64,000 nt of DNA, from positions 1 through 64,000 of the IMG/VR virus record IMGVR_UViG_2936514734_000001; one strand, 5' to 3'. This stretch comes from a virus (lineage: Duplodnaviria; Caudoviricetes). The notes under the pieces were generated by a model. It did not search any database and was not told the origin of the DNA. It saw nothing but the letters and a program-made list of their open reading frames with translations. The stretch's first letter is position 1. Every line of letters starts with the position of its first letter. The position numbers were made by a program, and so were the translations under genes. Below are positions 1 to 17,307 of this stretch, in pieces.

Positions 1-1
1 T

Positions 2-2488
2 CAAATAGCTGAACAAAACTATGCACTTGCTCAACAAGCAAAAGGGGTAGAAGCTGCACCTATTTATCAATTGCATAAATTGAAAAACATGACTATTGAG
101 CAAAATCTATCTGATATGGAACAAGTAGATACAATAGCTGGTTCCGCTCTTGATGCGTTCTATAGTGCATCTGAATTAGGAGGTATCTATGGTTTCTTAA
201 CCAAAACTGGTATTGGATATGAAGAATCATGGCGTGGTACAACACTTGCACCTTCAAGCTTGATGTCTTCTCCAAGTCGTGCGTTTTGGGATATGAACCT
301 TGGTGGTCTTGGAGGTTCATTATCAGAGATTGGTCGTCGTTATGTTCCTCGTGACCCTAACAAAGATTATTATTCTCCAATTCGAAATACAATGCCTGAT
401 TGGTTGCCTGGTCTAGGAGAACAAGAAGACTTTTTGCATGGTGACCCTTACACTAAAATTCAAAAAGGTGAAATAAGACTCCCAGGTAAAGCATATGAAA
501 AACTCTATAAGCTTCATCCAGATGGTACAGGTACAGGTGAGTTTGCAAACTACGGTGTTTTTGACCGCTTCCGTATTTTAGCTGATGTTGCGCCAGATAG
601 TGAACAATACAGTGTAGCTAAACACCAAGTTACATTGTTGAGACAAGCTGGTGGCATGACAGAGGATATGGAAAAAGAATTTGACGAAATCACAGATCAA
701 GTTCATAACAAGCAAGATACAATGCGTTGGTATGATAAGAAATTCTCTCATGCTGAAATTAAAAAAGAGACAGTTACTATCTCTAAAGTTATTGATGCAA
801 ATACCTTCATGGTTAGAGAGTATGATACACCAATCAAACTTGCAGGTGTTAAGCTGACTAAGAAAGACAACCAAGATGTTATTGATTGGCTTGGACAGTA
901 TTTAAAAGTAGGCGAAAAGATTAAAATCGGAGTTGCTGAAGATCCGGGTGCAAGGTACAACAATGACACTTATAACACGGTATCTGCTGTTGTTTATGCA
1001 AATAAAAATGAGGATGGCCGCTTCTGGTTTGAATCTAATAAAGGTCAATCACTGAATGCTCTTATTGCTAATCGTACATGGAATAAACCAGTTCAGATAA
1101 AAGATGATGGAAGTCCAACTTCAACTGCTGCTCTTTATTCTAATGATATGATTACAGTCGGTAAGTATATGGAGACATTAACACACGATATCTTACCTAA
1201 AGTACCTTTTGTCGGTATCTTAGCGGATAAGTTCTTACAAGTCCGAACTCCTGTTGAAAGCTATGAACGTGAACAGGTTTATGGTTCAGATTGGAGACCT
1301 TGGCAACATCCATATGAAGGATGGATTAAGCCAATGGTCAATACTGTTGCTTCTCAAAACCCATTAGTAGCGGGGGCTGAGATGGCCGCTATTGGTCATA
1401 TGTTTGGTCGAGGGACTAAGATGACAGGTTTAGGACGTGTTGCAGGATTCTTTATTGGTGCAGGTTTCGCTTCTCTGAGAGTGCTTGATGAACAAGCGGA
1501 AAAGGTAGTGCCGGGTGCTGATGGTGTATGGTTGCCTAAAGAACGTGAAAAAGAGCGTGAAATAAACGAGTACTTTGACCGTTTAAAATACGTTAAATAT
1601 CGAGGCCTATATGAGCAAGCACGAAAAATGGCAATGCAGGAAGAAGGCATTGATGTTGAAGAATTTTTCGATGCTGCCGCTGAAAAAGGCGAAAAAAATA
1701 AAGGTCTTAAGCGTTTCTTAACAGAGAAGAAAAGAATGTTGTCCTTCGCTAAAAAAATGGGTTATGGTGATACCGACGCCGTTAAGTCGCAAATTAGTGA
1801 ACTCTCCGACGGATTAGATGAAATCTCTTCCGCAAAAGAAGCGTATCAAGCAGGCAAATATACGTCACTTGCTATTAAATATCGTAAGGAGTATGAAGGT
1901 ACTTTCTATGGTATGGGTGAGTATGGTGCTTCTGATCGTACCGCGTTAATGAGAGCCTTAACACCAAAAGAGCGAGAATACATTCCTCGTTTCCTTGAAA
2001 CTACAGATAGCAAGGAACGCCAAGAGATTCTTAAATATGTTCCAAAAGACATTAAGAGAATCTTACAAGGTAGCTGGGGATTGAAGGTAGATAAACAAGA
2101 AAACATTAAAGCATATTTTGATGATCATTATCTACCAAGTGAAAATTGGGGTGGTTGGTCTGCAGGTGTAAACCTTGATGATATTAAAATTAAGGTAATG
2201 AAGAAAGAGGGCGTTAACCCTACTCAATCTGGTTATTGGGGTAAAGACCAAGCTAGAGCTGAAAAGTCAGGGCAGAAAGCAATTCCTATTCATTCGCTTA
2301 GCGGAAAAATCGATACCAATCGCTTAAATGAAGTGTTAGCAGGCATGGGACTATCTGATGTAGATGTCCAATTAACTACTTCTTATGGAGATGGACCGGG
2401 TGGAATTAATACCTCCATCAACATTTTAAATGATGTACACAATGAAATTGTTGATACAATCAATGACAGTGTACACTCACTTTTCTAA
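2..2488 (+). CDS. 5'-truncated large virion/ejected protein with a degenerate thermonuclease (SNase-like) domain and a glycine-rich hydrophobic segment
   Basis: Frame is open from position 2 (QIAEQNYALAQQ...), so the TTG at 71 is internal. SNase-like pattern TISKVIDANTFMV...IKLAGVKL...DTYNTVSAVVY lacks the DGDT, R and DxPE residues. Hydrophobic segment LGRVAGFFIGAGFASL. Confidence 0.6.
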   Translation, partial: QIAEQNYALAQQAKGVEAAPIYQLHKLKNMTIEQNLSDMEQVDTIAGSALDAFYSASELGGIYGFLTKTGIGYEESWRGTTLAPSSLMSSPSRAFWDMNLGGLGGSLSEIGRRYVPRDPNKDYYSPIRNTMPDWLPGLGEQEDFLHGDPYTKIQKGEIRLPGKAYEKLYKLHPDGTGTGEFANYGVFDRFRILADVAPDSEQYSVAKHQVTLLRQAGGMTEDMEKEFDEITDQVHNKQDTMRWYDKKFSHAEIKKETVTISKVIDANTFMVREYDTPIKLAGVKLTKKDNQDVIDWLGQYLKVGEKIKIGVAEDPGARYNNDTYNTVSAVVYANKNEDGRFWFESNKGQSLNALIANRTWNKPVQIKDDGSPTSTAALYSNDMITVGKYMETLTHDILPKVPFVGILADKFLQVRTPVESYEREQVYGSDWRPWQHPYEGWIKPMVNTVASQNPLVAGAEMAAIGHMFGRGTKMTGLGRVAGFFIGAGFASLRVLDEQAEKVVPGADGVWLPKEREKEREINEYFDRLKYVKYRGLYEQARKMAMQEEGIDVEEFFDAAAEKGEKNKGLKRFLTEKKRMLSFAKKMGYGDTDAVKSQISELSDGLDEISSAKEAYQAGKYTSLAIKYRKEYEGTFYGMGEYGASDRTALMRALTPKEREYIPRFLETTDSKERQEILKYVPKDIKRILQGSWGLKVDKQENIKAYFDDHYLPSENWGGWSAGVNLDDIKIKVMKKEGVNPTQSGYWGKDQARAEKSGQKAIPIHSLSGKIDTNRLNEVLAGMGLSDVDVQLTTSYGDGPGGINTSINILNDVHNEIVDTINDSVHSLF

Positions 2489-2553: not shown

Positions 2554-5500
2554 ATGGATGAAATCAAACGCGTACCTCTGAAAAACAGAAACTTATTGCC
2601 TGTATTCGAATCAGCTGATGGTTCCGGTACTATTAAAATGTTAAATGAACAAGAAAGAACCGCTGCTAAACAAAGACAAGAAGCGGTTTCTCAAACATAC
2701 AATGCACTTATAGAATCACACCGAATTAAGTCTATGGGGATATGGGAATCAGCACGTACTCCAAATGGCTTTAATGTAAATGCTCAACAAGCTTTAGATC
2801 CCTTTATGAAATTAAAGGCAAAAGAGAATGTGAGCTTCTTTGATATTGAAGCAATTGGTACTCCTGAGCATATGAGAAAAGGCACAAAAGGTCTTGATTT
2901 ATTTGCTATTACCGAATTGTCTTTCGGTGGAACGCAATTTACGGGTAAGGACTTTGTTAGCAATAAAGGCCAAATCATGTCATTAGCGATTGCACCAGGA
3001 AAACATGAGTATGAACGGTTAAAATCACAAATTAATCAGTTGAAGCAAAATCCTATGATGTCTATTTCTCAAGATATGCACCGTACACTACTTGATCTTT
3101 CTAAGTACTCAGATGATAAAAAGTTTCAGCGTTTCACAAAGACAGGTGAAAGACTACTTCAAGATGGTAAAGAATATACTCTTTTGTCTGGACATGCTCG
3201 TGTTCCGGCTGCTAATACGGCTTTTACACGAAATACAGTTGAAGAAATTGAAGCAGGGTTAAATAACCTATATAAGCATGGAACTAAGCTCAAGGATGCC
3301 CTCTCTATCTTCAAAACACATATTGAATCTACAGATTCAAAATTAGGTGGATACAATATTCATCATTATGATCTTCCAGCTATACTGGGATCAATAAAGG
3401 ATAAGGATACTAAAGACTTCTTTACTGCCGCTTCTAAAAACTCACTAGATTTTTATCACGGATACTCCGCTACTGCTAAAGACCCTTATTCTCTAACGGG
3501 TGCGAGTTTACGGCAAGAACATATCCACCAAAGTTTATTGAATAAAAAAGTTATTAAGGGAGCTCAAAACAAATACCTTTATCACTTGGCCAAAGATGAT
3601 ATTCAAGCGAATATTGATATTGCTGGATTCACTTACAATCAAATTAATAAGTTTATTGAAGAAGATAAAAAATCTCCTGCAGATTATGCTCTTACCCCAT
3701 CTACCTTAAAAACCGATATTCTTCAACAAGGACAGGAATTGTTCTCTTTTCAAAGTGGTTTCTTTGATAAAGATAAACATAAGTACAATTTAGTTGCTAC
3801 AGCACAAGAAGATGGTAAATTAAAGCCACGTTGGTCAAACCTCAACACATCTCTTCCTTCAAATGAAAGCTTCATCATTAATGAATTCCTAAAAGATGTA
3901 CCTCTTCCTGGAACTGATAAAACAGGCTATGGAGTAAGACTTGATTCTAAGGATATTAAAGGGAAAAGTCTTCTATTGATGTCGGAAACTCAAGAAGATT
4001 TAGCACAGCAAATACATGGCTCATTTGTTCCATTAAATGATGAAATCGGAAAGGGACTTAGAGATTTAAAAGTAAAACACGATGCATCATTCCGTGAGTA
4101 TGAAAGAATGTTCGACAGTAATGGCTGGAAGAAAATGAATGAGTACTATGGATACCTAAATAGTGCTGGTGAAGTAGGGAAAGATTTTGACTGGACTAAA
4201 CATGTACTAGCGAATGGTGGTACAGAAGAACTTGCAATTAAGTTTCCTCACATGGTTGAAAGATTAAAAGGAGAACGACAAATTTGGCAAAAGGTGCAGG
4301 AGCAATTAGCTCAATCCAGATTAGATGACAACCAAAAATCTATTGCTCTACGACACTTTAAAAACAAATTTGATCAACTAGGTGATAACAAAGCAGAAGT
4401 ATCTGCCGAAGGAAATAAGTTCTTTAACTTTAAGTTTGGTAAAAGCGATGAAACTATTTTTAACGCTAAAAATACAGACCAAATAAAGAATGCTTTCAGA
4501 AGCTATATCCGAGGAAGCAAACGTGGAGATCGTGTAGGAGAACCTGAAAAATCTTACAAGATAGCTCGCATTGATGAATTAAGTAATTTTGTTCTTGATA
4601 ACTTTGGCTTTGAAAAAGATAGCGTAGAGGCCAATAAGGTCAGAGCTATTGCAGATGGAATGAAAAGTGAGGTTTATTCAGGTAATAAAATTGAAACTGC
4701 TTTAACAAGTATCTCTAACTTTGTTCGTGATCATGTGGAGTCAAAAGGAAAAAGTAGCTTTGTACGTGAGGTAACAAATGAAGTAACTAGTAATCGCTTA
4801 TCAGCCATTTCAAAGCTTCAAGAGAAGTTACCGGAAGTACTACAGGAAAGTATTCAGCATTCACAATCGTACTCCAAAGCTAAAGAAGCTATTAATGGAA
4901 ATTCGAAATTAAAGAACTTCCTTCAACAGCAAGATAAATACATCAAGCAATTGTTCGCTAAAAACTTTGGTGCACATGGCATGAATGATCCTGAAAGCAT
5001 TCATAAAGCAAGTCGTATGGCTTCTAAGTATGAAGATTTAGTAGGGAAAATCATGTCTGCCTATAGTAATGATTTTAATACTCAAATCCGTTTCACTGAA
5101 GAAGGAAAACCTTTATTCGTTTTAGCAGATAAGAAAAGCGGAATGGATTTAAGTCAAATTAAGACATATGAAGAATTAGTTAATAATGCAAAAGTGGCCG
5201 CTATTGAGTTACCACATTTCGATGAAGACTTAAAAGTAAGATATGGTGGAAATCGAAAAGCAGCGGTTATCCGTTCAGGTGTTAGTAATTCTAAGGGTGT
5301 TTATCATAGCACTACCGTTACCGATGCATTAAATATGATTCTTGATTACTCAAAAAAAGCCAAAGAACTAGCTGAGATTGCAGAAGGAACTGGACGAAAA
5401 AATCAGTTTGTTGAAATCAGACAAGGGCTTCGTTATAGAGTTGGTAGACAAGTAGACCCTGTTCCTACAGATGCTAACCGTAAGTTAAGCTTCGACGATA

Positions 5501-8500
5501 AAGAAATGTTTGAACTAAAATCTGCAATTAGTGGAGAAGTTCGTTCAAGTAAATGGGATATTACAGGCTATGCTGAATCTTGGTATCGTCAAAATTCTAA
5601 GCGTTTAGGTTTACATGCGACAGCAGATGTAATTGCTGAAAACGCAAAAGAAAAAGGTATCTCTTTCTATGAAGCAATGGGGCCACGAGCTCAAGGTTAC
5701 GCAACTAGCGGTGGATTACTTGAACATGCTAAAAACATGTCTGGATTAAAAGGAAGTATGTTTGGTATCAACAACCGTTCTGCTTCTAGAGGATATGTTG
5801 GTACGGCATTAACTGATGCTCGTACTTATATGGCATTAGGTAACTACTATTCTGATTCTGTAGAGAACCCGCACAAAACGGTAAACTACAGAGCTGTTGA
5901 TAAAGAATATGCTGACAAAGCTTTGAGCAAAGCGGGGAAAAATCAATCGTTCCGTACAAATAACAGCTTTGTTTCATCTGCTGCTTATAAGGCATTGAAA
6001 GATGGCGAAGAGATACGTGGTATCACAATGCAAACTGGTTACATGACCGATGAAGAGATTGCTCTTAAATTAAAAGATGCAAACAATATTTCTCGCTATA
6101 AACAGATGATTGATAAAGCTGAACGTAAAAATCAACTTTCTCCAAAAGAAGCTAAGCAAATGAAAAAAGCTTTAGATATGGGGATGCTTTCTACAAGTGA
6201 AGGTCTTGCATTTATGGATCATACCTTATTGAAAGCCTTTGATGGTATGGATGAAGTGCGTGTCAATATGAACGCTGACGATGTTAGATTCAATAATTCT
6301 ATTGAAGCAGCTATTGAAAAAGAAGCTGAGAAACAAGGTCTTGGTAATGGGCTCTGGAAAGAAAAAGGAGTCACTTTTGAAAAGCCTGTAAAAATTGATG
6401 TATCAGACATGATGGATGAAAAGGATACGTTGACTCTAGGTAAGTACTGGAACAACAACATCGAGAACACCATTGTGGATGAAAAACGTTTCCGTAAGGG
6501 AGATAAAGTTCATATTCTTGGGTTCAGTGCAGATGATATTGCTAAGAAATCACTAATTCTTGGCAGGGAACGTAAGACAGGTCAAGGTTTCAAAGCGGTT
6601 ACTGAAGGTGGATTCCGTGCTACTATGACACCTATGCTCAGTGAGATCATGAGTGATCTTTATGGTGTAGAAGGAGTAGAGCAAGTTATTTCCCATCTTG
6701 GAGAGAAAAAAGGAGCTACAGATTTACCTGCTTTAATCCGTGGTTACGATACTCAAATTCGTCAACAATTTAGCGGTACAGCATCTAAGAAGATTGAAGG
6801 TTATTCTTCTGAAGAAGAAGCATTAGCCGCTTTCTATAAAGATGTTGAAGATATGGTTGGTATTAAAACAACTAACAGAGAAGGGCAATATGTTGTAGAT
6901 TCAAACTTTGGTTTAGATGGAAAGCAAATTAAGTACGAAGATCGCCAACGACTTTCTGAAAAATGGAAAGGCGAATTGGGTCTAAACCGTGAAGTATTTG
7001 CCGACATTACAATGGCTCACGATGTATGGAATCGTCAAGGTGGAAAAGATCGAGGCAAAATCACTGTTAAAGAGATTGACATGTTGGACCGCTCATATAT
7101 ACGTACTGGTTTGTATGCTCCAGGTGAAACCTCTGCTCATGCAAGCTTTATGCGTGATATGGTATATGGTTCTCAGACTACTCCAGAAATAAAAGCTCAG
7201 AAAAAAGTCTTCTCTGAAATGGTTAAAGCTGTTGGGAATTATGAAGATGGCTGGACACCAAAAGCAGGAGATGCTGTTATTGATTATACTACTGATGGTA
7301 TGGGATTAATGACAGATGTGAACGCACAATTAAAAGACGGTGTGCTTCATGTGAGTAAGGACTCTTTCCAGCCTGTTCCTCAAAAATCAGGTCATAATCA
7401 AACCTTCACAGTTGGTGATTATAACAAAACCATTATTAATGCAGGAGCTATGGAAGTTAAGCTTGAAGCTGGTGGAGAAGGTAAGAAGCTTCAGAACTAC
7501 CTTATGGAGCACAAAGGAACAGCTTACTTAAAGTTGCCTGAATTCGCTGCTAATCAATATGTTCCTCTTCTTGATACTGAATCAATGAAACTGCCTGGTG
7601 ACGTAAACTTTGTTGAGAAAACAGAGTTCTTGGATACTCTTAAAGGTCATTATGCTAATATCTCTCGCAAAACAGAAGAATACAATAATCTTTTTGTGAA
7701 TGATAAATTCTCTGAAGCTCAAGTCGCTGAACGTCGTGGAGTACTAGAGAAAGAAATCAATCGAGAAGTATCTAATCTTATTACTACTTTAGGTGATTCT
7801 ACATCTAAAGAAGGAATGTCTAAGATTATGGCAAGACGTCTGCCAATGTCTTCTCAGTATCAATTTGGAAGCGTAAACCCGGCTTTAGCCTATCAGAAAG
7901 ATGATGGCAAGTGGGTAAATAACGGCATTGTAAAAGAAGGCGAAATCTACATGAATGAAAAAGATATTCGTAACTTAGTAGGCGATAAAGCTGAAAACAT
8001 TGCGAAGTCTTGGAATGTAGATGTTGATAACATCAAGGCGTCTGATGTCGGATTAAAACAGAGAAAAAATGAAAATAATGAAGCCTTTAAAAATCGTGTA
8101 ACTACAGAGTATGTAATGAAAAACTGGAACCAAAATGACACATTCTCTACTACGATTCGTTATCCATCAATTGACGTGGGAACCACTCAAGCTTTAAAAG
8201 TAAAAATGAGTGATGCTGTTGGCGAAGGACAAGTAGTTGGTTTACGAGGTATGGCTGAACGTATCTCTGGTGACTTTGATGGAGATAATCTAGCTGTCTT
8301 CCTTACTCATTATGGAATTGATGACGAGAAACAGCGTGAAGCTGTATTGAAAGATGTAACAAAATTGCATGATTTCGATAAAGCAAAGAACGAATTAGCG
8401 GCTGATGTCATTATGAACAAAATGGAGAAAGACTTCCGGACTAACCTTTCTGAAGCAACTGGACTTGATGTAAACCACAAAGACATCTCAAAAGTAACAG

Positions 8501-9915
8501 ACCGCTTCTTCTCAGGTGAAAATATTGCAAAAGACCTGACACTAGGTAATTTACATGGTTCACAGGCAGAAGAAACAATCCAAAAAGCCCTCTCTAGTAG
8601 CGGAGCATATGAAGATTGGGGTACTGTTAAAAATGGTAAGTTTGGTTTAGGTGAAGCTGAGCATGAAAAATCCATTTTAGCTCGTGCTACTTCAACCACT
8701 ATCGGTAGTGTAGATAATACTCGTATGAGAATGTCAGCTGCATTCATGACAATGGCTGAAACAAAATATAAGTTATTTAATGATGCAGAAGGTCCAGCTA
8801 AGTACACGAAACAAGACTATGTACGAGAAACCGGTATGGTTGATGAATTCTTGCGTGAGTATTCTCAGAAATCTATTTCCGCTAAAAAAGTAGAAGGTTC
8901 TGACTCTACTGCTGAAGACATCATGAAGGATCTTTACAAGATGATTGATGATGTTAATAATCCGAGCAACAAACTGGATTATGATACAGCGGCCGCTCAA
9001 CTTGTTGATCGAGGACTATTCAAAAATGAGCCTTTCTTAGAAATTGGAAAAGGGGAAGTCTACAAAGGTTCAAGTCATGAGTTCATTAAGAAATCCCTAT
9101 CTATCTTAGGTGGAGCTGAAGAAGCTTACTCAGAAATGGGTATCAAGGGTTATAGAGAATCTAGCTTACTTGTAGCTGCTTCTCAAGGTATTGGGTTTCA
9201 CAACTTCTCTCACATGGTTAAAACAGGTGAACATATTCCTGGCATGGATGCTGTTAATGAGATTAGTAATATTGCTAAAGAATACGGCAATGACAGAATG
9301 GCTAAACATCAAGAATTCTTTGAGAAAACAGTTGAGCGTGTTCATGAACGTAGAGCAGCTAACGTATCTGGTCGATTAGAAGATGCAAGTAGCTCTTTAG
9401 AAATCATGAATAGTAACAAGCATGTAGAGCCTAAAATCCTAGAGAATAGTGCAATGCCTATCCATAAAACAATACGTGACCAAATGGATGATTCATTTGC
9501 AGAATTAGCTACAGCTGCAAAACATACCTTCCATGGTTCTGCTGCTAGTTTAGCAGGGGTAGGTGCATTAGGTTTTGGAGCAATATGGGCAACTAATGCT
9601 TTAACAAAGAACGCACCAACACCAGAAGGATTGCAGGAAATGGCTCCTGTAAATCCAGAGGTGCTAGGAGCTCCTACAGCCCGCGTAACGCCGAATCAAA
9701 ACGGTGAATATATAAATATATCTATTAGTGCAAAAGCCGCTCAGCGCCTAGATCATAACGATTTGGCAGCCATGATTAACAATGAAGTCATGAGCATGTC
9801 GAATGTTAAGATGAACACCAGTGTAAATGTAAATGACAATTCTAAAAAGATTGATCGAAACTGGTTGGAGGGAGCTGTTGCAAATGCAATGAATAATGGT
9901 TATGCATATAAATAG
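2554..9915 (+). CDS. Single-polypeptide two-barrel RNA polymerase (beta+beta'-like) with N-terminal DEDDh 3'-5' exonuclease; probable virion RNA polymerase
   Basis: TIRYPSI...QA...ISGDFDGDNLAV aligns with beta' NRAPTL...QA...NADFDGDQMAV; GFKAVTEGGFRA aligns with beta GDKMAGRHGNKG; exonuclease motifs FFDIE, GYNIHHYD and HLAKDD; RBS aggaggg. Confidence 0.85.
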   Translation: MDEIKRVPLKNRNLLPVFESADGSGTIKMLNEQERTAAKQRQEAVSQTYNALIESHRIKSMGIWESARTPNGFNVNAQQALDPFMKLKAKENVSFFDIEAIGTPEHMRKGTKGLDLFAITELSFGGTQFTGKDFVSNKGQIMSLAIAPGKHEYERLKSQINQLKQNPMMSISQDMHRTLLDLSKYSDDKKFQRFTKTGERLLQDGKEYTLLSGHARVPAANTAFTRNTVEEIEAGLNNLYKHGTKLKDALSIFKTHIESTDSKLGGYNIHHYDLPAILGSIKDKDTKDFFTAASKNSLDFYHGYSATAKDPYSLTGASLRQEHIHQSLLNKKVIKGAQNKYLYHLAKDDIQANIDIAGFTYNQINKFIEEDKKSPADYALTPSTLKTDILQQGQELFSFQSGFFDKDKHKYNLVATAQEDGKLKPRWSNLNTSLPSNESFIINEFLKDVPLPGTDKTGYGVRLDSKDIKGKSLLLMSETQEDLAQQIHGSFVPLNDEIGKGLRDLKVKHDASFREYERMFDSNGWKKMNEYYGYLNSAGEVGKDFDWTKHVLANGGTEELAIKFPHMVERLKGERQIWQKVQEQLAQSRLDDNQKSIALRHFKNKFDQLGDNKAEVSAEGNKFFNFKFGKSDETIFNAKNTDQIKNAFRSYIRGSKRGDRVGEPEKSYKIARIDELSNFVLDNFGFEKDSVEANKVRAIADGMKSEVYSGNKIETALTSISNFVRDHVESKGKSSFVREVTNEVTSNRLSAISKLQEKLPEVLQESIQHSQSYSKAKEAINGNSKLKNFLQQQDKYIKQLFAKNFGAHGMNDPESIHKASRMASKYEDLVGKIMSAYSNDFNTQIRFTEEGKPLFVLADKKSGMDLSQIKTYEELVNNAKVAAIELPHFDEDLKVRYGGNRKAAVIRSGVSNSKGVYHSTTVTDALNMILDYSKKAKELAEIAEGTGRKNQFVEIRQGLRYRVGRQVDPVPTDANRKLSFDDKEMFELKSAISGEVRSSKWDITGYAESWYRQNSKRLGLHATADVIAENAKEKGISFYEAMGPRAQGYATSGGLLEHAKNMSGLKGSMFGINNRSASRGYVGTALTDARTYMALGNYYSDSVENPHKTVNYRAVDKEYADKALSKAGKNQSFRTNNSFVSSAAYKALKDGEEIRGITMQTGYMTDEEIALKLKDANNISRYKQMIDKAERKNQLSPKEAKQMKKALDMGMLSTSEGLAFMDHTLLKAFDGMDEVRVNMNADDVRFNNSIEAAIEKEAEKQGLGNGLWKEKGVTFEKPVKIDVSDMMDEKDTLTLGKYWNNNIENTIVDEKRFRKGDKVHILGFSADDIAKKSLILGRERKTGQGFKAVTEGGFRATMTPMLSEIMSDLYGVEGVEQVISHLGEKKGATDLPALIRGYDTQIRQQFSGTASKKIEGYSSEEEALAAFYKDVEDMVGIKTTNREGQYVVDSNFGLDGKQIKYEDRQRLSEKWKGELGLNREVFADITMAHDVWNRQGGKDRGKITVKEIDMLDRSYIRTGLYAPGETSAHASFMRDMVYGSQTTPEIKAQKKVFSEMVKAVGNYEDGWTPKAGDAVIDYTTDGMGLMTDVNAQLKDGVLHVSKDSFQPVPQKSGHNQTFTVGDYNKTIINAGAMEVKLEAGGEGKKLQNYLMEHKGTAYLKLPEFAANQYVPLLDTESMKLPGDVNFVEKTEFLDTLKGHYANISRKTEEYNNLFVNDKFSEAQVAERRGVLEKEINREVSNLITTLGDSTSKEGMSKIMARRLPMSSQYQFGSVNPALAYQKDDGKWVNNGIVKEGEIYMNEKDIRNLVGDKAENIAKSWNVDVDNIKASDVGLKQRKNENNEAFKNRVTTEYVMKNWNQNDTFSTTIRYPSIDVGTTQALKVKMSDAVGEGQVVGLRGMAERISGDFDGDNLAVFLTHYGIDDEKQREAVLKDVTKLHDFDKAKNELAADVIMNKMEKDFRTNLSEATGLDVNHKDISKVTDRFFSGENIAKDLTLGNLHGSQAEETIQKALSSSGAYEDWGTVKNGKFGLGEAEHEKSILARATSTTIGSVDNTRMRMSAAFMTMAETKYKLFNDAEGPAKYTKQDYVRETGMVDEFLREYSQKSISAKKVEGSDSTAEDIMKDLYKMIDDVNNPSNKLDYDTAAAQLVDRGLFKNEPFLEIGKGEVYKGSSHEFIKKSLSILGGAEEAYSEMGIKGYRESSLLVAASQGIGFHNFSHMVKTGEHIPGMDAVNEISNIAKEYGNDRMAKHQEFFEKTVERVHERRAANVSGRLEDASSSLEIMNSNKHVEPKILENSAMPIHKTIRDQMDDSFAELATAAKHTFHGSAASLAGVGALGFGAIWATNALTKNAPTPEGLQEMAPVNPEVLGAPTARVTPNQNGEYINISISAKAAQRLDHNDLAAMINNEVMSMSNVKMNTSVNVNDNSKKIDRNWLEGAVANAMNNGYAYK

Positions 9916-9975: not shown

Positions 9976-12900
9976 ATGAAAGAGAAAATTTTAATTACCT
10001 CTCTAGCAAGAGTGTCAAAAAACACTCCTTGGCGTGTTGGTATTTATACAAATGATAACTATACATTCTTTAATGTGGGCGAAAAAGGAAATGTTGCAAT
10101 GAGCCCCCGTTTTAATATGTTTCTTGATGCAGTAGAAAAGAAGGTAACTCGATACCCTGTAGATGTTAGTTTTCATCCAATCAAGGACAATAGGGAGATG
10201 GAGATTACTAAAATTCGAGATCAAATTGTATATGTTGATTGTGGGTTTACAGCAAATCGGTTAATTCCTAATGCTCGTTTCTATTACGATAAAGAAGTAT
10301 TTTCAAATCCGCTTGCTATTAAACAGCAAAAGACGCAGGATACAAGTGGAATGTTTTCTGTAATGGATGTTTCAGAAAATATTGCTTCTACTGCCTTACA
10401 ATACATTGCTGTAGGACGTGTAGAGCAAGTAACTGACGGCGATACCATAGATGTAACTTTGCTCAAAACGTCTGATTTCTTATCCTCTCGTTTTGATACT
10501 AATGAAAAAGTTACGATAAGATTTAATGGTGTAGATACACCTGAAAAATATCAAGAAGGTGCAGAAGAGTATAAAGACCCTAAAAATACAAAGTTCGGTA
10601 AACTCTACGGTGTAACAATGCAAGACATGTACACTGTCGGAGGAGAAGCGTATGAGTATACGAAAAAGCTTCTAGGATGGAATAGCTCCAACAAACCGCT
10701 TGTTATCCTAAACTTTGATCGTCAAAAAGATGGGGATGACCCAATGATGGATGCAGGATATGGACGTTATGTAGCGGACGTATATGCAACAAGTGAAAAG
10801 AATGCTGAAATCGCTATGGAGAAAGTTGAACAAGGTAAGTCTTTTGTACACGTTCCAAAAACACTATTAACAACAAAATCTAAATCATTTCCTCAAGTTC
10901 CTCTTGGTTTATTTCAATACGAATTCGCTTATGACGGATCAAGCATTCTTAATCCTTTCGATTGGGTATCAGAACTAGGATTGAAAGGATTTGATCCAGG
11001 CAATCAGTATACTCCTGATAATCTACAATCTGATACTGATCCTGATGTTAGTTCGGGAGATGTACAAGTTTATGATACAAACTTAAACACTGATACTATT
11101 AATTTCTCTTCTACAGATGGTCCAACCTCTAATAACTTGGACTTCTTTGAGCCATACGATGATCGTCTTGGCGATTTCACAAAGGGAATTAAGAGCGTAG
11201 CGGATTTAAAGAAGCATTCAAAAGTTCGTATCGGTGACGTTATCTTAACTATTCCTCCAACTTCAATTGAAGTAAATAAAACTTCTAATATCTCTAAAGT
11301 AAAAACACTTCGTACTAAATCTTCTGTTTTAGTTAACCGTGGTCAAACACTAACTACACTTAGCCTAAATCTGTACTTCCATGATTTAGAATCCATTAAT
11401 GGTACTCAATATCCTTGGAGAAAGGATTATAAAAAAGGTGAAAAGCAGAAACACTTCTTCGTTGATGGATTACGTCCTCTACTTGCACAATTCACTAAAA
11501 CACCATTTGTACCTATTGATAACTATTATATTAATGATGTCTTAGGTATTCGTGATGTAGCTTTAATGGATATCGAAGTAACAACAGTGCCTAATTTCCC
11601 TGAATCCCTAACTGCTACTCTTACACTAGTTGAGTTTAACTGTGAAGCATATCTAATGGATCAAGGAACGTTAGGTGATTCTATAAACTATCCGCTAATG
11701 CGTTGGTTTTACAATCAAGCAATGGCTAACCGTGGAGAGAAATACCGCTACTTTAAAGGCTTAGATGCACCTATAAAAAGTGACATTAGCTTTACGCTTG
11801 CAGATGAAGAGTTTTTATCTAAACGTAAAGAAGCTATTCAGTATATTAAAAAAGCTGATTCACCTGAAAAAGTACGTGTAGAAATGAAAACTAAGAATAC
11901 TTCTTATAAAGCTAAGAAAGAAGATGAAAAGGTTCTCAGTAAGATTGTTTCACAGTATGAGGTGTACTCCAAAGCGAACATAAAAAAATATACGGTTATC
12001 GACTATTTCAACAAACCTGGATTAAACGGTCCGTCTAATAGTATTGCCGGTCAACTAATAGAGAAATATGGTATCAAAAAAGAGACAGCAGATAATGCAA
12101 TTCTTGAAGGAATTGAACTGTTTACCGAAATGTATGATGGTAAATATAAAAACGAAACAACTGTATTGAAAAATCAAAATATCTTCTTACCATATGAATC
12201 TCGTTTGTACTACAAGTCTCGTTTTGATTGGACTGGATTAGAAGGATTCTTTACTAACTATGATGAAGAGCCTCCTGTAGATTATTCAGAAGAGCCATAT
12301 AAAGGACAAGAGTCTAAAGGATTGGTGTTATTCGATAAGCTGACCGACATTGACAACCAAGCTAAACTTGAGAAGAAATTTAAAAAATACTATGACTCTG
12401 GTAAAGGCCGCTTTATGATTCCTGCAAGCTCTGATGCAATGAAGACAATTAAAGAAGTCGCGAACTCTGCTAAAGATATGATGGATAGTGTTGATGCATA
12501 CGAGGAAGAGTTTAATGAGATTCTAGGGATTATTGATGCAAGTGAAGCTGGTATCCCAATGAAAGAATTTGAAATCTCAGGTAGCATGATTCCTATTTCA
12601 CTTAATGCTCGATTCTCGAATGAATACAGTATCTCTCATGTTCAATCGGGAGAAGCAGCTACTTTGCAATATATGGGTGGAGGCGATCCTTACGTTGACC
12701 TTATTTTAGAAGTTGACGAAGATGCAGCTAAAGATATTAACAGACTTGTTGCTATTTCTGATTATTATGCAAAGACCTACAACCAAGGGATTACTAATGG
12801 TTATATAGGTATTCAAAATGACTTAGCTCAATTGTTCGGCATTCGATATATCATGTTTGAAAACTTATCCATCAATACAGTGCCTAATTTCCCTGACCGC

Positions 12901-15900
12901 TACCAAATTATGATTCGTGCTATTGGGTTTGACAAAACACAACGTCAACGTGAAGAATTAACTGCTTTACCAGGAAACACTGATCATATGGACATTGATA
13001 TGCTTACAGAGAATAAAGGTGCATTTGCAAGTGATAGAATGATTGAATCTCGTCTTCACCAGTTAGAAGTTTATCCAGATTTAGAGCTTCCTACTTATAA
13101 CCAATTGAATAAGGACTTGGCTGAATTTGATGCAGGTTCTATTAAAGAATATGTAAATCTAAACGGTGGTACATATGTAGATCCTGACTTTTATTTTTCT
13201 ACTGTAAGTACCTTCAGAAAAATGGTTGAAGAAGAATACACAAGCGAACATCGATTAAATATGTTTGATGCAACTGGTGTAGCTGCATACACAAGTAGTA
13301 CAGATGCAGAGCAGGTTTTCAATACAACAGATACAGACTGGAAAAAGCTTCAGGATATGCAAACTACTGAAGGCGTTGAACCTATTGGATGGGTGTTTAG
13401 ATGGGGAGAAGGACAGCAGGAGACTCAGGAAACAGCAACCGCTTCTACAGGTACTCTTGCAGCTGAACAGGGAGGTACTTTGTCAGCGCAAAACCCTGAT
13501 GTGCAATCATTCTTAACCGCACAAGAAAATGGGGCACCTACATATAATAAGTTTCCTACTCTTGAAGAATGGAATAAGTTATTCCCTAAAAACGATTATG
13601 TCTATAATCTCTATAGTTCACAGCCTGGTGCTGATGAAACTCTTATCTATCAAGAGCTTAGTTATCAAATTGATAAATACTTTAAGAAATACTATTCAGC
13701 TCCAAACTTTATTAAGGAGTGTCGTGGTGACTTAAAGGATGCTGACAAGTCTAAGAAGCGAGTTTCTTATTCAGTTCCTAATGATTTTTATGCTATGTAT
13801 TTTGATTATCAGCGACGTACTCAACGGTCGTTTAAAGAAGTAGCAAAAATTGATGAACTAACAAAGGATAAAAAGATTACAAGACCAAGTGAAACTGATA
13901 GTGTAGATGCAGCGGATTTCCGTAAGACCGATAAGAAAATCACAAAAGAACGTTTTATGACTCTTTTCAAAGCTTTCTTAGATAAAATGAGCGGTTGGCA
14001 ACATTACAAAGGAAAAGGTCCTTTGGTTAGCAAAACAGGGCGCGTTGGGTTAGCTCAGGTTGATATTACAGGTAAAGACATGACTGTTGATGAAGTAAAA
14101 CGACTAATGTACAACTGGAGATACAACCTTGAAGTAGCGGTGAAACAATTGTTAGGACACTTCAAAAAAGCTAAAAAGCTTAATGATGATTGTACTAACT
14201 TTGAAGTTTTTTGTCGTCCTTGGGATGCAATGTTTGCATTATATGAAAAACCGGACGCTAAGCTTCTTCGTTCATCAGATGTAGAAGATAGTGACTTTGC
14301 TAGTGGTATCATGAGTCGATTCACTGCATATGCAACAAAACCTTTTAATACATTCAGTGGTTTCAATGAAGAAGTGTACAAGCAGTTTGCTGGTCTATCA
14401 ATGGAAGAACAGACATCTGTAGGTGGAGGAAACGAGACTGATTACGTTAACTCGCTATTAGAGCTTGAATACTATGATCAATCAGTTCTTAAAAAAGCAG
14501 GTCTAACAATTAAGTCTGATAAGAAAAACATCAAAAAAGCTATGAAGAAATATCTAAGTGAACAAACCAAAGAGACACTTTATGAAATCTATCAAAAACA
14601 CTTGAAATTCCTGTATGAACTAGGTAAATCGGATAGTACTGCAGAGAAGGTTATAGATGGTGTTTCATGGCTTAACCCGGCAAACCTAGCGGGTGGAGTT
14701 GCACATAAGGTAACTGATAAAGCTACTGATTTTCTTTTCTCAGACAAAAAAGATAAGAATGGATATGAGTACAGCAAAGAGATTATCGAAAAAGGTAGTA
14801 AGCTTTACGAGTCAATTAGAAACCTCGATAAAACTGCTGAAAGCTCTCAAGCATCAACAGATACTCGTTTGTTTAATGATGTTGATCCTCATACCATTTA
14901 TCAAGAAATGTTCTACGACTTGAGATACCATGATCAAAGAGGACGTATGTTACGTGCATTCCCTGGATTCCAAATGTTTATCATTCAAGAGGGTGACTAT
15001 TTTGGTAAGTATAAGTTCTGGGACAACATGTACGGGTTCAATGCAATCCAAAGTATTGACGTACACCGTTCTCGTAAAATAGCAGCAGATACAGCGGTTA
15101 TTTCAATGACGAATGTATACTCAAACTTAACAACTCGTCGTACCGATGTTGACTATGTTGACCGTCAGTTAAAATGGTGGGACAACTATATATGGAATGA
15201 GATTCCTAAAGATCTTATTGATAAGAAGGAAAATGAAATCCATAAGAACATCTACCTCGAAACAGGTGCGAGAATACACCTTCGTATGGGATATGGTGCA
15301 AACGCAAGCTCACTACCAGTTGTCTTTAATGGAACAATCACTGAACTTGAAATAGGTGATTTAATTGATATCGTTGCTCAAGGTGATGGAGTCGAACTAG
15401 GAAACGTTATTTCTGGTGACCCTGACGATGATAACGACGGTCTATTCAATGTAACTGAACCTAGAGACTTAATTTGTAGCTTATTAAGCTCAAAAGGTAG
15501 CTGGTTTAAAGACTTCATGAATAATGTTTCAGATGGTCAATTGTTTAGACAAAACCCTCTAGGTATTATGCATTTCGGTCAACCTTTTGACACAAATGAT
15601 TCCACAGCTGCAAAACCTCTTGGAAATCTTCTATGGTACAACGATGAATATGGTGAAGTAGCCCAAAATATTTACTCTTCTAATGGATCACCAACCTTTT
15701 CTCAATGGCTACACCCGAATGGAGAAAGAAATGATATTTTCCATGATTTTAGTTGGAAACGTCTATGGGATAATAAGTTCAAAATTCTTAACCCAGGTGA
15801 TGAAAAGAACGTTGTTGTTAAGTTCTACAACAATACTGTATGGGACATCATTCAAACAATAGCATATACATCTCCTGACTATATTGCCGCTGTCATGCCT

Positions 15901-17307
15901 TTTGAATTACGCTCAACACTGTTTTTCGGAAAACCATATTGGAGAGCCGCTTATCAATATGATTCTCGATATGAGTTCGATGCTGCTAATAAGACATGGG
16001 CAAGACATCTAGTAAAAGAAGCTAGAAGACCATATATGCAACACAAGTTCTACACTTCAGCCTATGACATCATCGAAAACAATATTAGAGCTTCTGAAGA
16101 AAATATCTATACAAACGTAATTGTTAACTATGACGGTAAACAAACTCCTGTATTGTATGCTGATGCGGATATCCGTTATGACAAGCAAAAAACTCGTGTA
16201 GTAGAAGCGGATATTGTTGCTAAGTTTGCTGATTATTACACCTCTGAAGTAGTCGCTACTTACTACGGCAACTCTGCTCTTCGTGATAATCTAAAAGACA
16301 TGTACAAAGGTAATTTACTTGTTATGGGTGACCCAACAGTTAAGCCTCATGACATGATGTACATCGGTGATGAAATCAATGATTTACAAGGAAACTGCCT
16401 AGTGAAATCTGTAACCCACCATTTTAGTTTAGAGACTGGATTTGTTACATCAATTGAACCGGATTTACTTATTGTCAATGATGACCAAGTTATCCTTGAA
16501 CTAGGCAAGTGGTATTACAGTTTTGCAAGTTCGATAGGGGCTACACTGGCAATGCGTTATGCTGCTAAGAAAGCAACCCGTAACCTAGTGAATTGGTTAA
16601 TGAAGCCTAATGGTGTACCTGTAGGTGTTGGGAAATGGGTATCTACAAAAGGTTTAAGACACACAGTGAGTCTAGCAAGCGACGGCAGTAAAGATTTTCA
16701 AGACATCTTGAAAACAATTGATCAAATCATTGCTTCTGGTGATAAAGATGTAAGTGCATTGCAGACCAAGTTAGCAGGTCAATTTGATACAGCGGCGCAA
16801 AATCTACAAAAAGCAACGGGCAAAGCGGGTATTATAAAAGATACATCTAGAAAGGCTGTTCTTAAATCAGGTGCATCCTTTATGAGAACTCTCGGTGGTA
16901 CTTCAAATATTGCTAAAGTAGGTTTGAGTGCAACGAAAATAGTAAGAGGAGTAGCTTCAATAACTCCTGTTGGCTTCATTGTTAACTCTGCGTTATGGGT
17001 AGGAAGCGAAATGTTATTTGAACATTATCGTCGATACAAAGAAAACCTACAGTGTGTAATCTGTATTCCTCTGACATATCGAGGACAAGAGCTAACAGCT
17101 GGTATCAACAATCATGCAGGTATGGTTTATGGAGACAATCCGGGCCGTTACGATAGATTGTTTGACGCTACATTTGGTTCAGATGATGGTGAAGCTGAAG
17201 ATATCTTTGGTAACTCATTATTCGAACTCGCTAACTTCTTTAGTGGATCAGGTGGAGTATACTCTGACCCTGAGAAGACAAAAGAATTAAATAGTCTTGG
17301 TAAATAA
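9976..17307 (+). CDS. Giant baseplate hub fusion: thermonuclease + two tube-like domains + degenerate SLT + gp27/gpD-like hub
   Basis: VTDGDTIDV, IRFNGVDTPE and YGRYVADVY (SNase); ARIHLRMGYG...VFNGTITE and GDPTVKPHD...VKSVTHHFS...GFVTSI (hub); lies upstream of spike and wedge genes. Confidence 0.75.
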   Translation: MKEKILITSLARVSKNTPWRVGIYTNDNYTFFNVGEKGNVAMSPRFNMFLDAVEKKVTRYPVDVSFHPIKDNREMEITKIRDQIVYVDCGFTANRLIPNARFYYDKEVFSNPLAIKQQKTQDTSGMFSVMDVSENIASTALQYIAVGRVEQVTDGDTIDVTLLKTSDFLSSRFDTNEKVTIRFNGVDTPEKYQEGAEEYKDPKNTKFGKLYGVTMQDMYTVGGEAYEYTKKLLGWNSSNKPLVILNFDRQKDGDDPMMDAGYGRYVADVYATSEKNAEIAMEKVEQGKSFVHVPKTLLTTKSKSFPQVPLGLFQYEFAYDGSSILNPFDWVSELGLKGFDPGNQYTPDNLQSDTDPDVSSGDVQVYDTNLNTDTINFSSTDGPTSNNLDFFEPYDDRLGDFTKGIKSVADLKKHSKVRIGDVILTIPPTSIEVNKTSNISKVKTLRTKSSVLVNRGQTLTTLSLNLYFHDLESINGTQYPWRKDYKKGEKQKHFFVDGLRPLLAQFTKTPFVPIDNYYINDVLGIRDVALMDIEVTTVPNFPESLTATLTLVEFNCEAYLMDQGTLGDSINYPLMRWFYNQAMANRGEKYRYFKGLDAPIKSDISFTLADEEFLSKRKEAIQYIKKADSPEKVRVEMKTKNTSYKAKKEDEKVLSKIVSQYEVYSKANIKKYTVIDYFNKPGLNGPSNSIAGQLIEKYGIKKETADNAILEGIELFTEMYDGKYKNETTVLKNQNIFLPYESRLYYKSRFDWTGLEGFFTNYDEEPPVDYSEEPYKGQESKGLVLFDKLTDIDNQAKLEKKFKKYYDSGKGRFMIPASSDAMKTIKEVANSAKDMMDSVDAYEEEFNEILGIIDASEAGIPMKEFEISGSMIPISLNARFSNEYSISHVQSGEAATLQYMGGGDPYVDLILEVDEDAAKDINRLVAISDYYAKTYNQGITNGYIGIQNDLAQLFGIRYIMFENLSINTVPNFPDRYQIMIRAIGFDKTQRQREELTALPGNTDHMDIDMLTENKGAFASDRMIESRLHQLEVYPDLELPTYNQLNKDLAEFDAGSIKEYVNLNGGTYVDPDFYFSTVSTFRKMVEEEYTSEHRLNMFDATGVAAYTSSTDAEQVFNTTDTDWKKLQDMQTTEGVEPIGWVFRWGEGQQETQETATASTGTLAAEQGGTLSAQNPDVQSFLTAQENGAPTYNKFPTLEEWNKLFPKNDYVYNLYSSQPGADETLIYQELSYQIDKYFKKYYSAPNFIKECRGDLKDADKSKKRVSYSVPNDFYAMYFDYQRRTQRSFKEVAKIDELTKDKKITRPSETDSVDAADFRKTDKKITKERFMTLFKAFLDKMSGWQHYKGKGPLVSKTGRVGLAQVDITGKDMTVDEVKRLMYNWRYNLEVAVKQLLGHFKKAKKLNDDCTNFEVFCRPWDAMFALYEKPDAKLLRSSDVEDSDFASGIMSRFTAYATKPFNTFSGFNEEVYKQFAGLSMEEQTSVGGGNETDYVNSLLELEYYDQSVLKKAGLTIKSDKKNIKKAMKKYLSEQTKETLYEIYQKHLKFLYELGKSDSTAEKVIDGVSWLNPANLAGGVAHKVTDKATDFLFSDKKDKNGYEYSKEIIEKGSKLYESIRNLDKTAESSQASTDTRLFNDVDPHTIYQEMFYDLRYHDQRGRMLRAFPGFQMFIIQEGDYFGKYKFWDNMYGFNAIQSIDVHRSRKIAADTAVISMTNVYSNLTTRRTDVDYVDRQLKWWDNYIWNEIPKDLIDKKENEIHKNIYLETGARIHLRMGYGANASSLPVVFNGTITELEIGDLIDIVAQGDGVELGNVISGDPDDDNDGLFNVTEPRDLICSLLSSKGSWFKDFMNNVSDGQLFRQNPLGIMHFGQPFDTNDSTAAKPLGNLLWYNDEYGEVAQNIYSSNGSPTFSQWLHPNGERNDIFHDFSWKRLWDNKFKILNPGDEKNVVVKFYNNTVWDIIQTIAYTSPDYIAAVMPFELRSTLFFGKPYWRAAYQYDSRYEFDAANKTWARHLVKEARRPYMQHKFYTSAYDIIENNIRASEENIYTNVIVNYDGKQTPVLYADADIRYDKQKTRVVEADIVAKFADYYTSEVVATYYGNSALRDNLKDMYKGNLLVMGDPTVKPHDMMYIGDEINDLQGNCLVKSVTHHFSLETGFVTSIEPDLLIVNDDQVILELGKWYYSFASSIGATLAMRYAAKKATRNLVNWLMKPNGVPVGVGKWVSTKGLRHTVSLASDGSKDFQDILKTIDQIIASGDKDVSALQTKLAGQFDTAAQNLQKATGKAGIIKDTSRKAVLKSGASFMRTLGGTSNIAKVGLSATKIVRGVASITPVGFIVNSALWVGSEMLFEHYRRYKENLQCVICIPLTYRGQELTAGINNHAGMVYGDNPGRYDRLFDATFGSDDGEAEDIFGNSLFELANFFSGSGGVYSDPEKTKELNSLGK

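Follow-up and report, generated by a model that had tools for sequence, protein, structure and literature searches.

We analyzed the first 64 kb (64,000 nucleotides; here, the window) of IMG/VR virus record IMGVR_UViG_2936514734_000001, a 239,374-bp record rated complete, focusing on P0001, a giant gene of its tail module. P0001 is an uninterrupted reading frame encoding 2453 residues within a co-directional late structural operon (Table 1). An initial annotation, made from the letters alone, had read in this product a divergent single-chain two-barrel RNA polymerase, and the checked translation placed each of the motifs that it cited at the residues and nucleotides quoted. In the beta-like part of the protein, these are STSEGLAFM (residues 1213-1221), GFKAVTEGGFRA (1345-1356), VEQVISHLG (1375-1383), and GKITVKEIDML (1501-1511); in the beta'-like part, they are SKEGMSKIMARRLPMS (1751-1766), IRYPSI (1868-1873), GDFDGDNLAV (1906-1915), and YSQKSISAKK (2103-2112), with DFDGD at residues 1907-1911 (nucleotides 8272-8286). 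Comparison with the actual rpoB and rpoC sequences of Escherichia coli confirmed both the collinearity that had been claimed and the spacing of eight residues between K1347 and R1355, which is that of beta K1065 and K1073. The beta counterparts lie at 811 (NFED), 1063-1074 (GDK..NKG), 1094 (VDIVLNPLG), and 1269 (RFGEME), and the beta' counterparts at 333-353 (switch 2), 424 (NRAPTLH), 458 (NADFDGD), 778 (bridge helix), and 928 (trigger loop). Nine motifs in all follow the cellular order, beta first and beta' after. A D.DGD pentapeptide occurs four times in this proteome against 0.9 occurrences expected, and by itself it is not beyond chance; the motifs draw their significance from the invariance of the catalytic set over 44 divergent sequences, from profile alignments with RNA polymerase beta and beta' at the motifs, and from fold matches.

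P0001 belongs to a family of large phage proteins. A word-indexed search recovered 13 relatives at 43 to 98% identity on contigs of ~220 to 246 kb assigned to Priestia, Gottfriedia, Cytobacillus, and Bacillus, and a profile run exhaustively over 1.84 billion representatives recovered about 55 clusters, nearly all with members of 2400 to 2560 residues. A P0001-type copy is present on 10 IMG/VR contigs, and three isolated Bacillus jumbo phages (vB_BauM_KLEB27-3, vB_BceM_WH1, and Edson) encode a homologue. The triad motif varies in its second position, reading DYDGD in KLEB27-3 gp034 and DHDGD in WH1 gp095. Database relatives are labelled only "hypothetical protein" or "structural protein," as the initial annotation had anticipated; because single-sequence searches were empty, an automated pipeline would leave P0001 unnamed. 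Two shorter copies, P0009 and P0010 (2082-2083 residues; Bacillus mycoides, Logan assemblies), lie on Bacillus chromosomal contigs, one of them of 538 kb. In these copies NFSRD or NFSGD, together with a deletion, replaces DFDGD, and the R-x-P strand is lost; judged by sequence, they are probably decaying prophage copies.

Residues 1180 to 2125 of P0001 were aligned with 43 homologues (44 sequences in all), among which identity ranges from 16 to 81% and is mostly 16 to 26%. Despite this divergence, G1217, T1294, K1347, and R1355 are invariant in the beta-like part, and position 1216 is Glu or Asp in 44 of 44 sequences. In the beta'-like part, R1869, P1871, D1907, D1909, G1910, D1911, and Y1920 are invariant, so that DFDGD, whose conservation had been set beforehand as a test of the polymerase assignment, keeps its three aspartates and its glycine throughout. 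Further invariant columns are G2051, Q2105, I2108, S2109, and K2111. Eight residues have been described as universal to two-barrel polymerases, namely, three aspartates, one more acidic residue, two basic residues, and an R-x-P pair (PMC2919709), and in the alignment all eight are accounted for by conserved positions of the P0001 family, of which 1216 is always acidic and the other seven are invariant. The beta-like barrel also holds an insert of ~130 residues, a candidate flap-like sandwich-barrel hybrid domain. Two departures from the E. coli enzyme are that the second basic residue of the beta-like barrel is Arg (R1355) in the family versus Lys (K1073) in beta and that R1869 and P1871 precede D1907 by 38 residues, compared to a spacing of 35 in E. 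coli.

The family consensus shows additional motifs more clearly than P0001 alone. A switch-2-like segment with the consensus S-A-x-M-D-M-S-G-R-F-R-I-Q-G-V-N-P compares with G-K-R-V-D-Y-S-G-R-S-V-I of beta'. A bridge-helix-like segment (A-R-L-G-K-x-x-V-G-x-L-D-N-x-R-x-K, compared with G-A-R-K-G-L-A-D-T-A-L-K-T-A in E. coli) conserves R2044, G2051, and D2054, and model confidence is low over part of it. For YSQKSISAKK, the consensus F-S-Q-D-x-I-S-S-K-K-F set against the E. coli trigger loop T-Q-L-T-M-R-T-F-H makes functional equivalence to a trigger helix plausible. It is likewise plausible, from motif resemblance and the family consensus (V-R-Y-G-x-K-E versus R-F-G-E-M-E), that GKITVKE is the counterpart of beta RFGEME (1269-1274); at least 90% of family members retain K1506 and E1507.

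Profile searches linked the family to RNA polymerases. A profile of 10 family sequences found nothing meaningful among PDB sequences. With the 44-sequence profile, 8 of the 10 best matches were RNA polymerase large subunits, including phiKZ gp55 (E 0.015), AR9 beta', Rpb1 of African swine fever virus (ASFV), and Xanthomonas beta. Each of these alignments falls exactly at R-x-P...DxDGD or at GDK..G..K...VDIVLNPLG, as do those with E. coli RpoB and RpoC; for the beta-like stretch, HMMER placed the match to beta of Xanthomonas and of E. coli at GDKMAGRHGNKG...VDIVLNPLG. PF00623 (Rpb1 domain 2) was matched by 14 of the 44 family members with a best E of 1.2e-5, below the Pfam threshold. Among the Pfam families listed for the 44 members (25 of 52), no other was matched by more than two members, and PF00562 was not among them. 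Six-frame searches of four related phage genomes with PF00623 gave one match each, always inside the giant homologue, at 17 to 21 bits versus a cut-off of 25.3. Such subthreshold scores are evidence, at the level of sequence, of homology and not of Pfam family membership, and P0001 itself did not reach the gathering threshold of PF00623 or PF00562. Neither P0001 nor its family matched PF05183, the YonO/QDE-1 family of RNA-dependent RNA polymerases (RdRPs), although structural likeness to QDE-1 is high nonetheless. Apart from one RdRP cluster at 0.89, which we treat as a lead only, the language-model neighbors of the core were all unnamed viral clusters.

An AlphaFold 2 model of residues 1180-2125 built from the 44 sequences reached a predicted local distance difference test score (pLDDT) of 80.8 and a predicted template modeling score (pTM) of 0.75; an earlier run with a 10-sequence alignment (pLDDT 56) was too poor to use. 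The model is beta-rich across the beta-like barrel region. A Foldseek search of the PDB returned 329 matches at E<=1e-3, and the best 50 of these were all beta' subunits, AR9 or phiKZ polymerases, eukaryotic polymerases (Pol I), or QDE-1. By VIA-align, a structure comparison independent of Foldseek, the top match was QDE-1 (Z 13.3; root mean square deviation 3.7 over 263 residues; model residues 36-946), followed by Rpb1 and beta' homologues (Z 10-11), ZmRDR2 (Z 9.9), the non-virion polymerase P74 gp62 (Z 9.7), and P23-45 gp96 (Z 8.2). The alignments of the single-chain enzymes cover both barrels (model residues 33-946). That with QDE-1 pairs, at its start, model residue 36 with chain residue 708, adjoining QDE-1 D709, and this alignment range suggests that position 1216 corresponds to D709. 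In the ESM Atlas, the two best rows were single chains in which PF00562 (the beta barrel domain) occurs together with PF00623, and a viral cluster with both domains aligned at template modeling (TM) scores of 0.49/0.50 over 597 residues (query 30-819). In BFVD, after a WH1-type homologue, the best match was a "minor tail protein" of an uncultured siphovirus (A0A8S5SD80_1; E 1e-16, TM 0.48). Proteins of Microcystis phage MaMV-DC and Acinetobacter jumbo phage ME3 (A0A075BUT7_2, A0A172Q021_2, and A0A172Q0S6) also matched, as did, further down the ranking, giant-virus, nudivirus, and phiKZ-type polymerases. On the strength of these fold matches, tail-associated two-barrel polymerases may be more widespread. 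Modeling followed by Foldseek, which the initial annotation had proposed as a check, thus returned RNA polymerase matches, and judged by the structural alignments the two double-psi barrel domains are predicted to form one catalytic core. Together, these independent lines of profile, conservation, and predicted-structure evidence back the homology of P0001 to single-chain two-barrel RNA polymerases.

Table 1. Features of P0001 and of the genes that flank it, in window coordinates except where the G000:C1 contig is named
Feature	Coordinates	Strand	Landmarks	Basis
P0001, whole gene	2554..9915	+	Exonuclease; region without assigned function; predicted RNA polymerase core; C-terminal anchor-like module	Open reading frame and translation
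DEDDh (DnaQ-like) 3'-5' exonuclease domain (residues ~60-400)	2731..3753	+	ExoI D97/E99, ExoII D273, ExoIII H344/D349	
Region without recognizable domain (residues ~401-1211)	3754..6186	+	Conserved within family	
Beta-like double-psi barrel region	6187..6708	+	E1216 (ST-x-[ED]-G), K1347, R1355, VEQVISHLG	Conservation, HMMER, beta-rich model, Atlas fold matches
GKITVKEIDML, candidate counterpart of beta RFGEME	7054..7086	+	Family consensus G-L-V-R-Y/W-G-x-K-E	
Switch-2-like segment	7804..7881	+		Family alignment and E. coli rpoC sequence
Beta'-like double-psi barrel	8143..8313	+	R1869-x-P1871...Q1879; catalytic D1907-F-D1909-G-D1911	Invariance, alignments, PF00623
Bridge-helix-like segment	8680..8739	+	A-R-x-x-x-x-x-I-G-S-x-D-N-x-R-x-R	Consensus ARLGK..VG.LDN.R.K versus beta' GARKGLADTALKTA
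Trigger-loop-like candidate	8860..8889	+	S-Q-x-x-I-S-x-K-K; invariant Q2105, I2108, S2109, K2111	Beta' TQLTMRTFH
C-terminal module (residues 2301-2453)	9454..9915	+	Gly/Ala-rich hydrophobic stretch 2328-2350	
Upstream giant gene (~2168 aa)	1..2488 (3' part) joined to G000:C1:235356-239374	+	Wraps around record ends	
Giant baseplate hub P0002 (2443 aa)	9976..17307	+	Homologous to 0305phi8-36 ORF147 hub	phrog_20474, E 7e-189

The polymerase-like core is joined to a second enzyme domain at the N-terminus. Across 41 sequences, D97, E99, E121, D273, H344, and D349 are invariant. In the PDB, a profile of the 41 homologues scored highest against exonuclease chains that bear the deposited name "exodeoxyribonuclease III" (best E 3.7e-5); Exonuclease I followed (E 1.5e-4 to 3.5e-4), and DnaQ and TREX1 chains matched weakly (E 0.05 to ~2). 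By homology, residues 60-400 are a conserved DEDDh 3'-5' exonuclease. The stretch between the exonuclease and the core (residues ~401-1211) had no Pfam or PHROG match; its residues 1000-1211 were mostly helical in the pLDDT 56 model, so this prediction carries little weight. At the other end of the protein, the C-terminal module is the best-conserved part of the family (33 to 38% identity to distant members versus ~17% elsewhere), and the last ~67 residues align with gp146 of Bacillus phage 0305phi8-36 (E 2e-5). The Gly/Ala-rich stretch in this module was considered as a membrane helix and rejected, since a standard hydropathy scan stayed below the transmembrane threshold throughout the module.

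The setting of the gene agrees with the assignment, made in the initial annotation, to the tail cluster of a myophage of the Bacillota: the phage is a Bacillaceae jumbo myophage with sheath and baseplate genes and a giant hub adjoining P0001, and its relatives are found in Bacillaceae genera. The record is circularly permuted, leaving the upstream giant gene open across its end. In order, the genes encode the major head protein, the tail sheath, three tube paralogues, two small chaperone-like paralogues, the 2168-residue protein, P0001, the 2443-residue hub, muralytic tail proteins, and the baseplate wedge. The N-terminus of the hub (window 10387-10854; residues ~138-293) matched the phrog_452 endonuclease family (E 1.5e-9) and, weakly, Pfam SNase (E 0.012), and the hub may therefore carry a staphylococcal-nuclease-like domain. 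This layout is the tail gene plan of 0305phi8-36, in which ORF146 (gp146; 2537 residues) is a "hypothetical tape measure protein" that was detected in virions by mass spectrometry (PMC2147016). Like P0001, gp146 lies directly upstream of the giant hub, is of similar size, and has the same C-terminal ~67 residues and a DEDDh exonuclease. The two differ in that gp146 (P0070; L006:3863-11476) has neither DxDxD nor a polymerase-profile match, and its exonuclease-like region lies midprotein (residues ~1199-1722; YLDIETTG...) rather than at the N-terminus. Because gp146 has the DEDDh domain without the polymerase, the slot, the C-terminal module, and the exonuclease are, by sequence comparison, common across the lineage and the polymerase is confined to one branch. 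No tape-measure Pfam or PHROG family matched any part of P0001, in which globular enzyme domains take up at least about 1250 residues. P0001 occupies the 0305phi8-36 tape-measure slot, yet another giant gene separates it from the chaperone-like genes; the ~2168-residue product of that gene, directly after the two chaperone-like paralogues, is an alternative tape-measure candidate.

A candidate second polymerase gene was found in the opposite-strand, nonstructural arm of the genome. P0069 (1461 residues; G000:C1:206169-210554, minus strand; L004:3170-7555) carries R-F-P...GADHDGD and matches PF05183 weakly (E 1.3e-4). RdRP-type clusters make up 66 of its 100 nearest language-model (Atlas) neighbors, and it is kept in two close relatives at ~77% identity. 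From these sequence features, P0069 is a candidate non-virion YonO/RdRP-like RNA polymerase. By comparison, gp99 of 0305phi8-36 matches PF05183 at E 1e-20 and is YonO-like (PMC2147016, PMC7824862). P0069 and gp99 were not significantly similar by BLASTP, nor was the P0001 family profile to P0069 by hhalign, and a tblastn search of the phage collection with P0069 gave no match. Neither P0069 nor PF05183 was detected in KLEB27-3, WH1, or two distant complete relatives, which at such divergence proves little about absence.

The closest known parallel is gp96 of Thermus phage P23-45, a virion protein that combines a tape measure with an active RNA polymerase bearing DFDGD (Chaban et al. 2024, PMC10770324; PDB 8h2m/8h2n). 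As in gp96, the predicted polymerase of P0001 is a single chain with two barrels and a DFDGD triad, set within a giant protein of the tail module, and the folds of the two match over model residues 33-946. The candidate P0069 would extend the likeness, since P23-45 also has a separate, non-virion two-barrel polymerase elsewhere in its genome, and the scheme of a virion plus a non-virion polymerase has been shown experimentally in that phage (PMC10770324). However, the polymerase of gp96 lies at the N-terminus of a 5002-residue siphovirus tape measure that also has a metallopeptidase, whereas that of P0001 lies in the C-terminal two thirds (core ~1212-2125) of a 2453-residue myovirus protein that begins with a DEDDh exonuclease. 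The motifs of P0001 are also closer to cellular beta and beta', and a tape-measure role is here putative. An hmmsearch of gp96 gave no polymerase-region match. Given the lack of a detectable sequence relationship and the beta/beta'-derived look of the P0001 motifs, the P0001-type fusion probably originated independently of gp96. P0001-type proteins were not among the entries seen in the supplementary tables of the P23-45 paper (PMC10770324).

Other two-barrel enzymes share parts of this design. Fused beta-beta' mini RNA polymerases (PF00562 plus PF00623), which occur in phages and bacteria, provide the best whole-core structural matches and have an identical motif order, but they are free-standing proteins of ~900 to 1000 residues that score above the Pfam thresholds, whereas the P0001 core is embedded and scores below both. 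Enzymes of the QDE-1/RDR2/YonO type (PF05183) are likewise single polypeptides, and QDE-1 has the highest VIA score; the P0001 family differs from them in lacking a PF05183 match and in having cellular-type switch-2-like and bridge-helix-like motifs. The YonO-like protein of this genome is P0069, a separate gene. The virion polymerases of crAss-like phage phi14:2 (gp66), phiKZ, and AR9 are virion-carried two-barrel enzymes for early transcription, and the AR9 and phiKZ non-virion beta' chains were among the top Foldseek matches of the P0001 core. In contrast to P0001, gp66 is thought to be head-packaged in a podovirus-like phage, phiKZ and AR9 have multisubunit enzymes, and none of the three has an exonuclease or occupies a tape-measure slot. 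In the literature, we found no description of a tail-fused polymerase in Bacillus jumbo phages or of one joined to an exonuclease and no papers on KLEB27-3 or vB_BceM_WH1; a 2021 survey attributes to 0305phi8-36 only its YonO-like enzyme.

Taking these data together, we consider it likely that residues ~1212-2125 of P0001 are a single-chain two-barrel RNA polymerase, part of a virion protein and delivered through the tail for early transcription. What the computations show is the fold, a conserved set of catalytic residues, homology to exonucleases, the position of the gene, and the presence of a second polymerase gene; virion packaging, ejection, timing, catalysis, and use of a DNA template are inferred, as follows. 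P0001 would be made late as a virion protein of a jumbo myophage that infects Bacillaceae and resembles 0305phi8-36. In its core, the beta-like barrel would contribute E1216, K1347, and R1355, and the beta'-like barrel R1869, P1871, and the Mg-binding D1907, D1909, and D1911, with the switch-2-like, bridge-helix-like, and trigger-like elements arranged as in cellular enzymes. The C-terminal module would anchor P0001 at the hub or within the tail lumen until tail contraction, when the protein would exit the virion with or ahead of the DNA; its polymerase core would then transcribe the first-entering phage genes without the host polymerase, and P0069 would take over afterwards. The DEDDh exonuclease would be injected as well and might serve to trim 3' ends or to attack host nucleic acid. 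Experimental footing for the packaging step comes solely from gp146, the positional counterpart with the common C-terminal module, which was found in virions by mass spectrometry. The more inclusive hypothesis is evenly poised in our estimation: that the P0001 type constitutes a previously unrecognized family of ~2400- to 2560-residue, tail-borne, injected proteins in the tape-measure slot of Bacillaceae jumbo myophages akin to 0305phi8-36 that combine a beta/beta'-derived polymerase with a DEDDh exonuclease, arose by a fusion independent of P23-45, and represent the first two-barrel polymerase coupled to an exonuclease.

Several observations weigh against this interpretation. As a single query, P0001 gave no meaningful match in Pfam, PHROGs, or PDB sequences, and hhalign of the family profile against residues 327-1124 of P23-45 gp96 gave a probability of 0.3%, which is not significant. 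The two-barrel fold was read from structure-search matches and not from the model coordinates, and hence does not speak to active-site geometry. The second polymerase went undetected in the distant family members G002 and G003. No biochemical or proteomic record of P0001 or its polymerase-bearing homologues was found in the literature, and by analogy the packaging of the polymerase-bearing form is an extrapolation, given that gp146, the sole virion-proven counterpart, lacks the polymerase. Moreover, more than 1300 residues of folded enzyme domains fit a tail lumen poorly unless they are unfolded or located elsewhere.

These points leave room for other explanations. The polymerase-like region could be a genuine homologue that has become a catalytically idle remnant in a protein whose true function is to assemble the tail or to form a channel, as might be expected of a gene that occupies the tape-measure slot, is best conserved at its C-terminus, has a counterpart in 0305phi8-36 that manages without a polymerase domain, and has decayed NFSRD/NFSGD copies in Bacillus chromosomes. 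We regard an idle remnant as unlikely: invariance of all catalytic residues in 44 sequences that are elsewhere only ~17 to 25% identical is the pattern predicted by selection on catalysis, and the motif-less copies also carry deletions and hence look like decaying prophage genes. It is just as improbable, in our judgment, that the region is an active two-barrel polymerase of another specificity, whether RNA dependent, primer making, or a DNA polymerase with the fused exonuclease as its proofreader. Archaeal PolD is a two-barrel DNA polymerase, a same-chain DEDDh exonuclease is typical of proofreading DNA polymerases, and the residue two before the Asp triad (N in beta') is variable in the P0001 family. 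QDE-1, the best single structural match, has both RdRP and DNA-dependent RNA polymerase activity (PMC9508822). However, the switch-2-like, bridge-helix-like, and trigger-like motifs are conserved, and switch 2 and the funnel have been described as hallmarks of DNA-dependent RNA polymerases (PMC2919709). The sequence matches are to PF00623 with none to PF05183, and the exonuclease lies ~800 residues away and occurs polymerase-free in gp146, so the modules look independent.

A polymerase that is active but made and used only in the cell, with its tail-module location incidental, would not be carried by the virion at all. That no proteomic support for polymerase-bearing members was found is compatible with this, and the "structural protein" labels of KLEB27-3 and WH1 may be annotation by analogy. 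Yet the gene is part of the late structural operon, in which it lies after the chaperone-like genes and before the hub, its C-terminal module is common to a mass-spectrometry-proven virion protein, an unpackaged late-expressed polymerase would have little to transcribe, and the nonstructural arm already holds a separate polymerase candidate. We therefore rate intracellular use slightly lower than either of the preceding alternatives. Chance resemblance of the motifs in a large protein of unrelated fold, which the pentapeptide count and the empty single-sequence searches might suggest, is effectively refuted: the invariance across the family, the profile alignments, and three fold searches independent of one another all lead to RNA polymerases.

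A tail-delivered polymerase in P0001 would bear on how phages begin infection. Phage-carried RNA polymerases allow the infection program to start without the host enzyme and to escape host-directed control. To our knowledge, only a few designs exist (N4, crAss-like gp66, the multisubunit phiKZ/AR9 enzymes, and P23-45 gp96), and virion polymerases fused to tail proteins are known to us from one group of Thermus siphoviruses. If the interpretation is correct, a second, unrelated tail-module polymerase would make tail delivery a recurring solution rather than a curiosity, and the phages concerned would be contractile-tailed jumbo phages of Bacillaceae from soil and the rhizosphere. Such a polymerase would also supply a function for the largest gene that a whole phage lineage carries under the label "hypothetical/structural," change how the tape measure is annotated in 0305phi8-36-like phages, offer a minimal beta/beta'-like core for studying what two-barrel polymerases require, and raise the question of the role of a fused 3'-5' exonuclease beside a transcriptase.

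Three further observations concern the occurrence of this DNA and the rest of the genome. DNA nearly identical to window positions 5900-9900 is present in rhizosphere, root, and soil metagenome runs and in several isolate runs from 14 studies; no RNA run was among the matching public runs listed. A hairpin, (A/G)GGGCGTTAGCCC(C/T), recurs in 11 nearly identical, mostly intergenic copies at 104-203 kb of G000:C1 (for example, at 107958, 126313, 157998, and 191026). On the minus (coding) strand, a T-run follows each copy, and by sequence these hairpins resemble intrinsic terminators whose stem-loop sequence is unusually conserved. Finally, about a dozen intergenic copies of the partly palindromic ATTCTAG(T/G)GGAAT lie at 148-192 kb of G000:C1 in the nonstructural arm (for example, at 165204, 183467, 188287, and 191845), where this sequence could be a phage-specific promoter or operator element.

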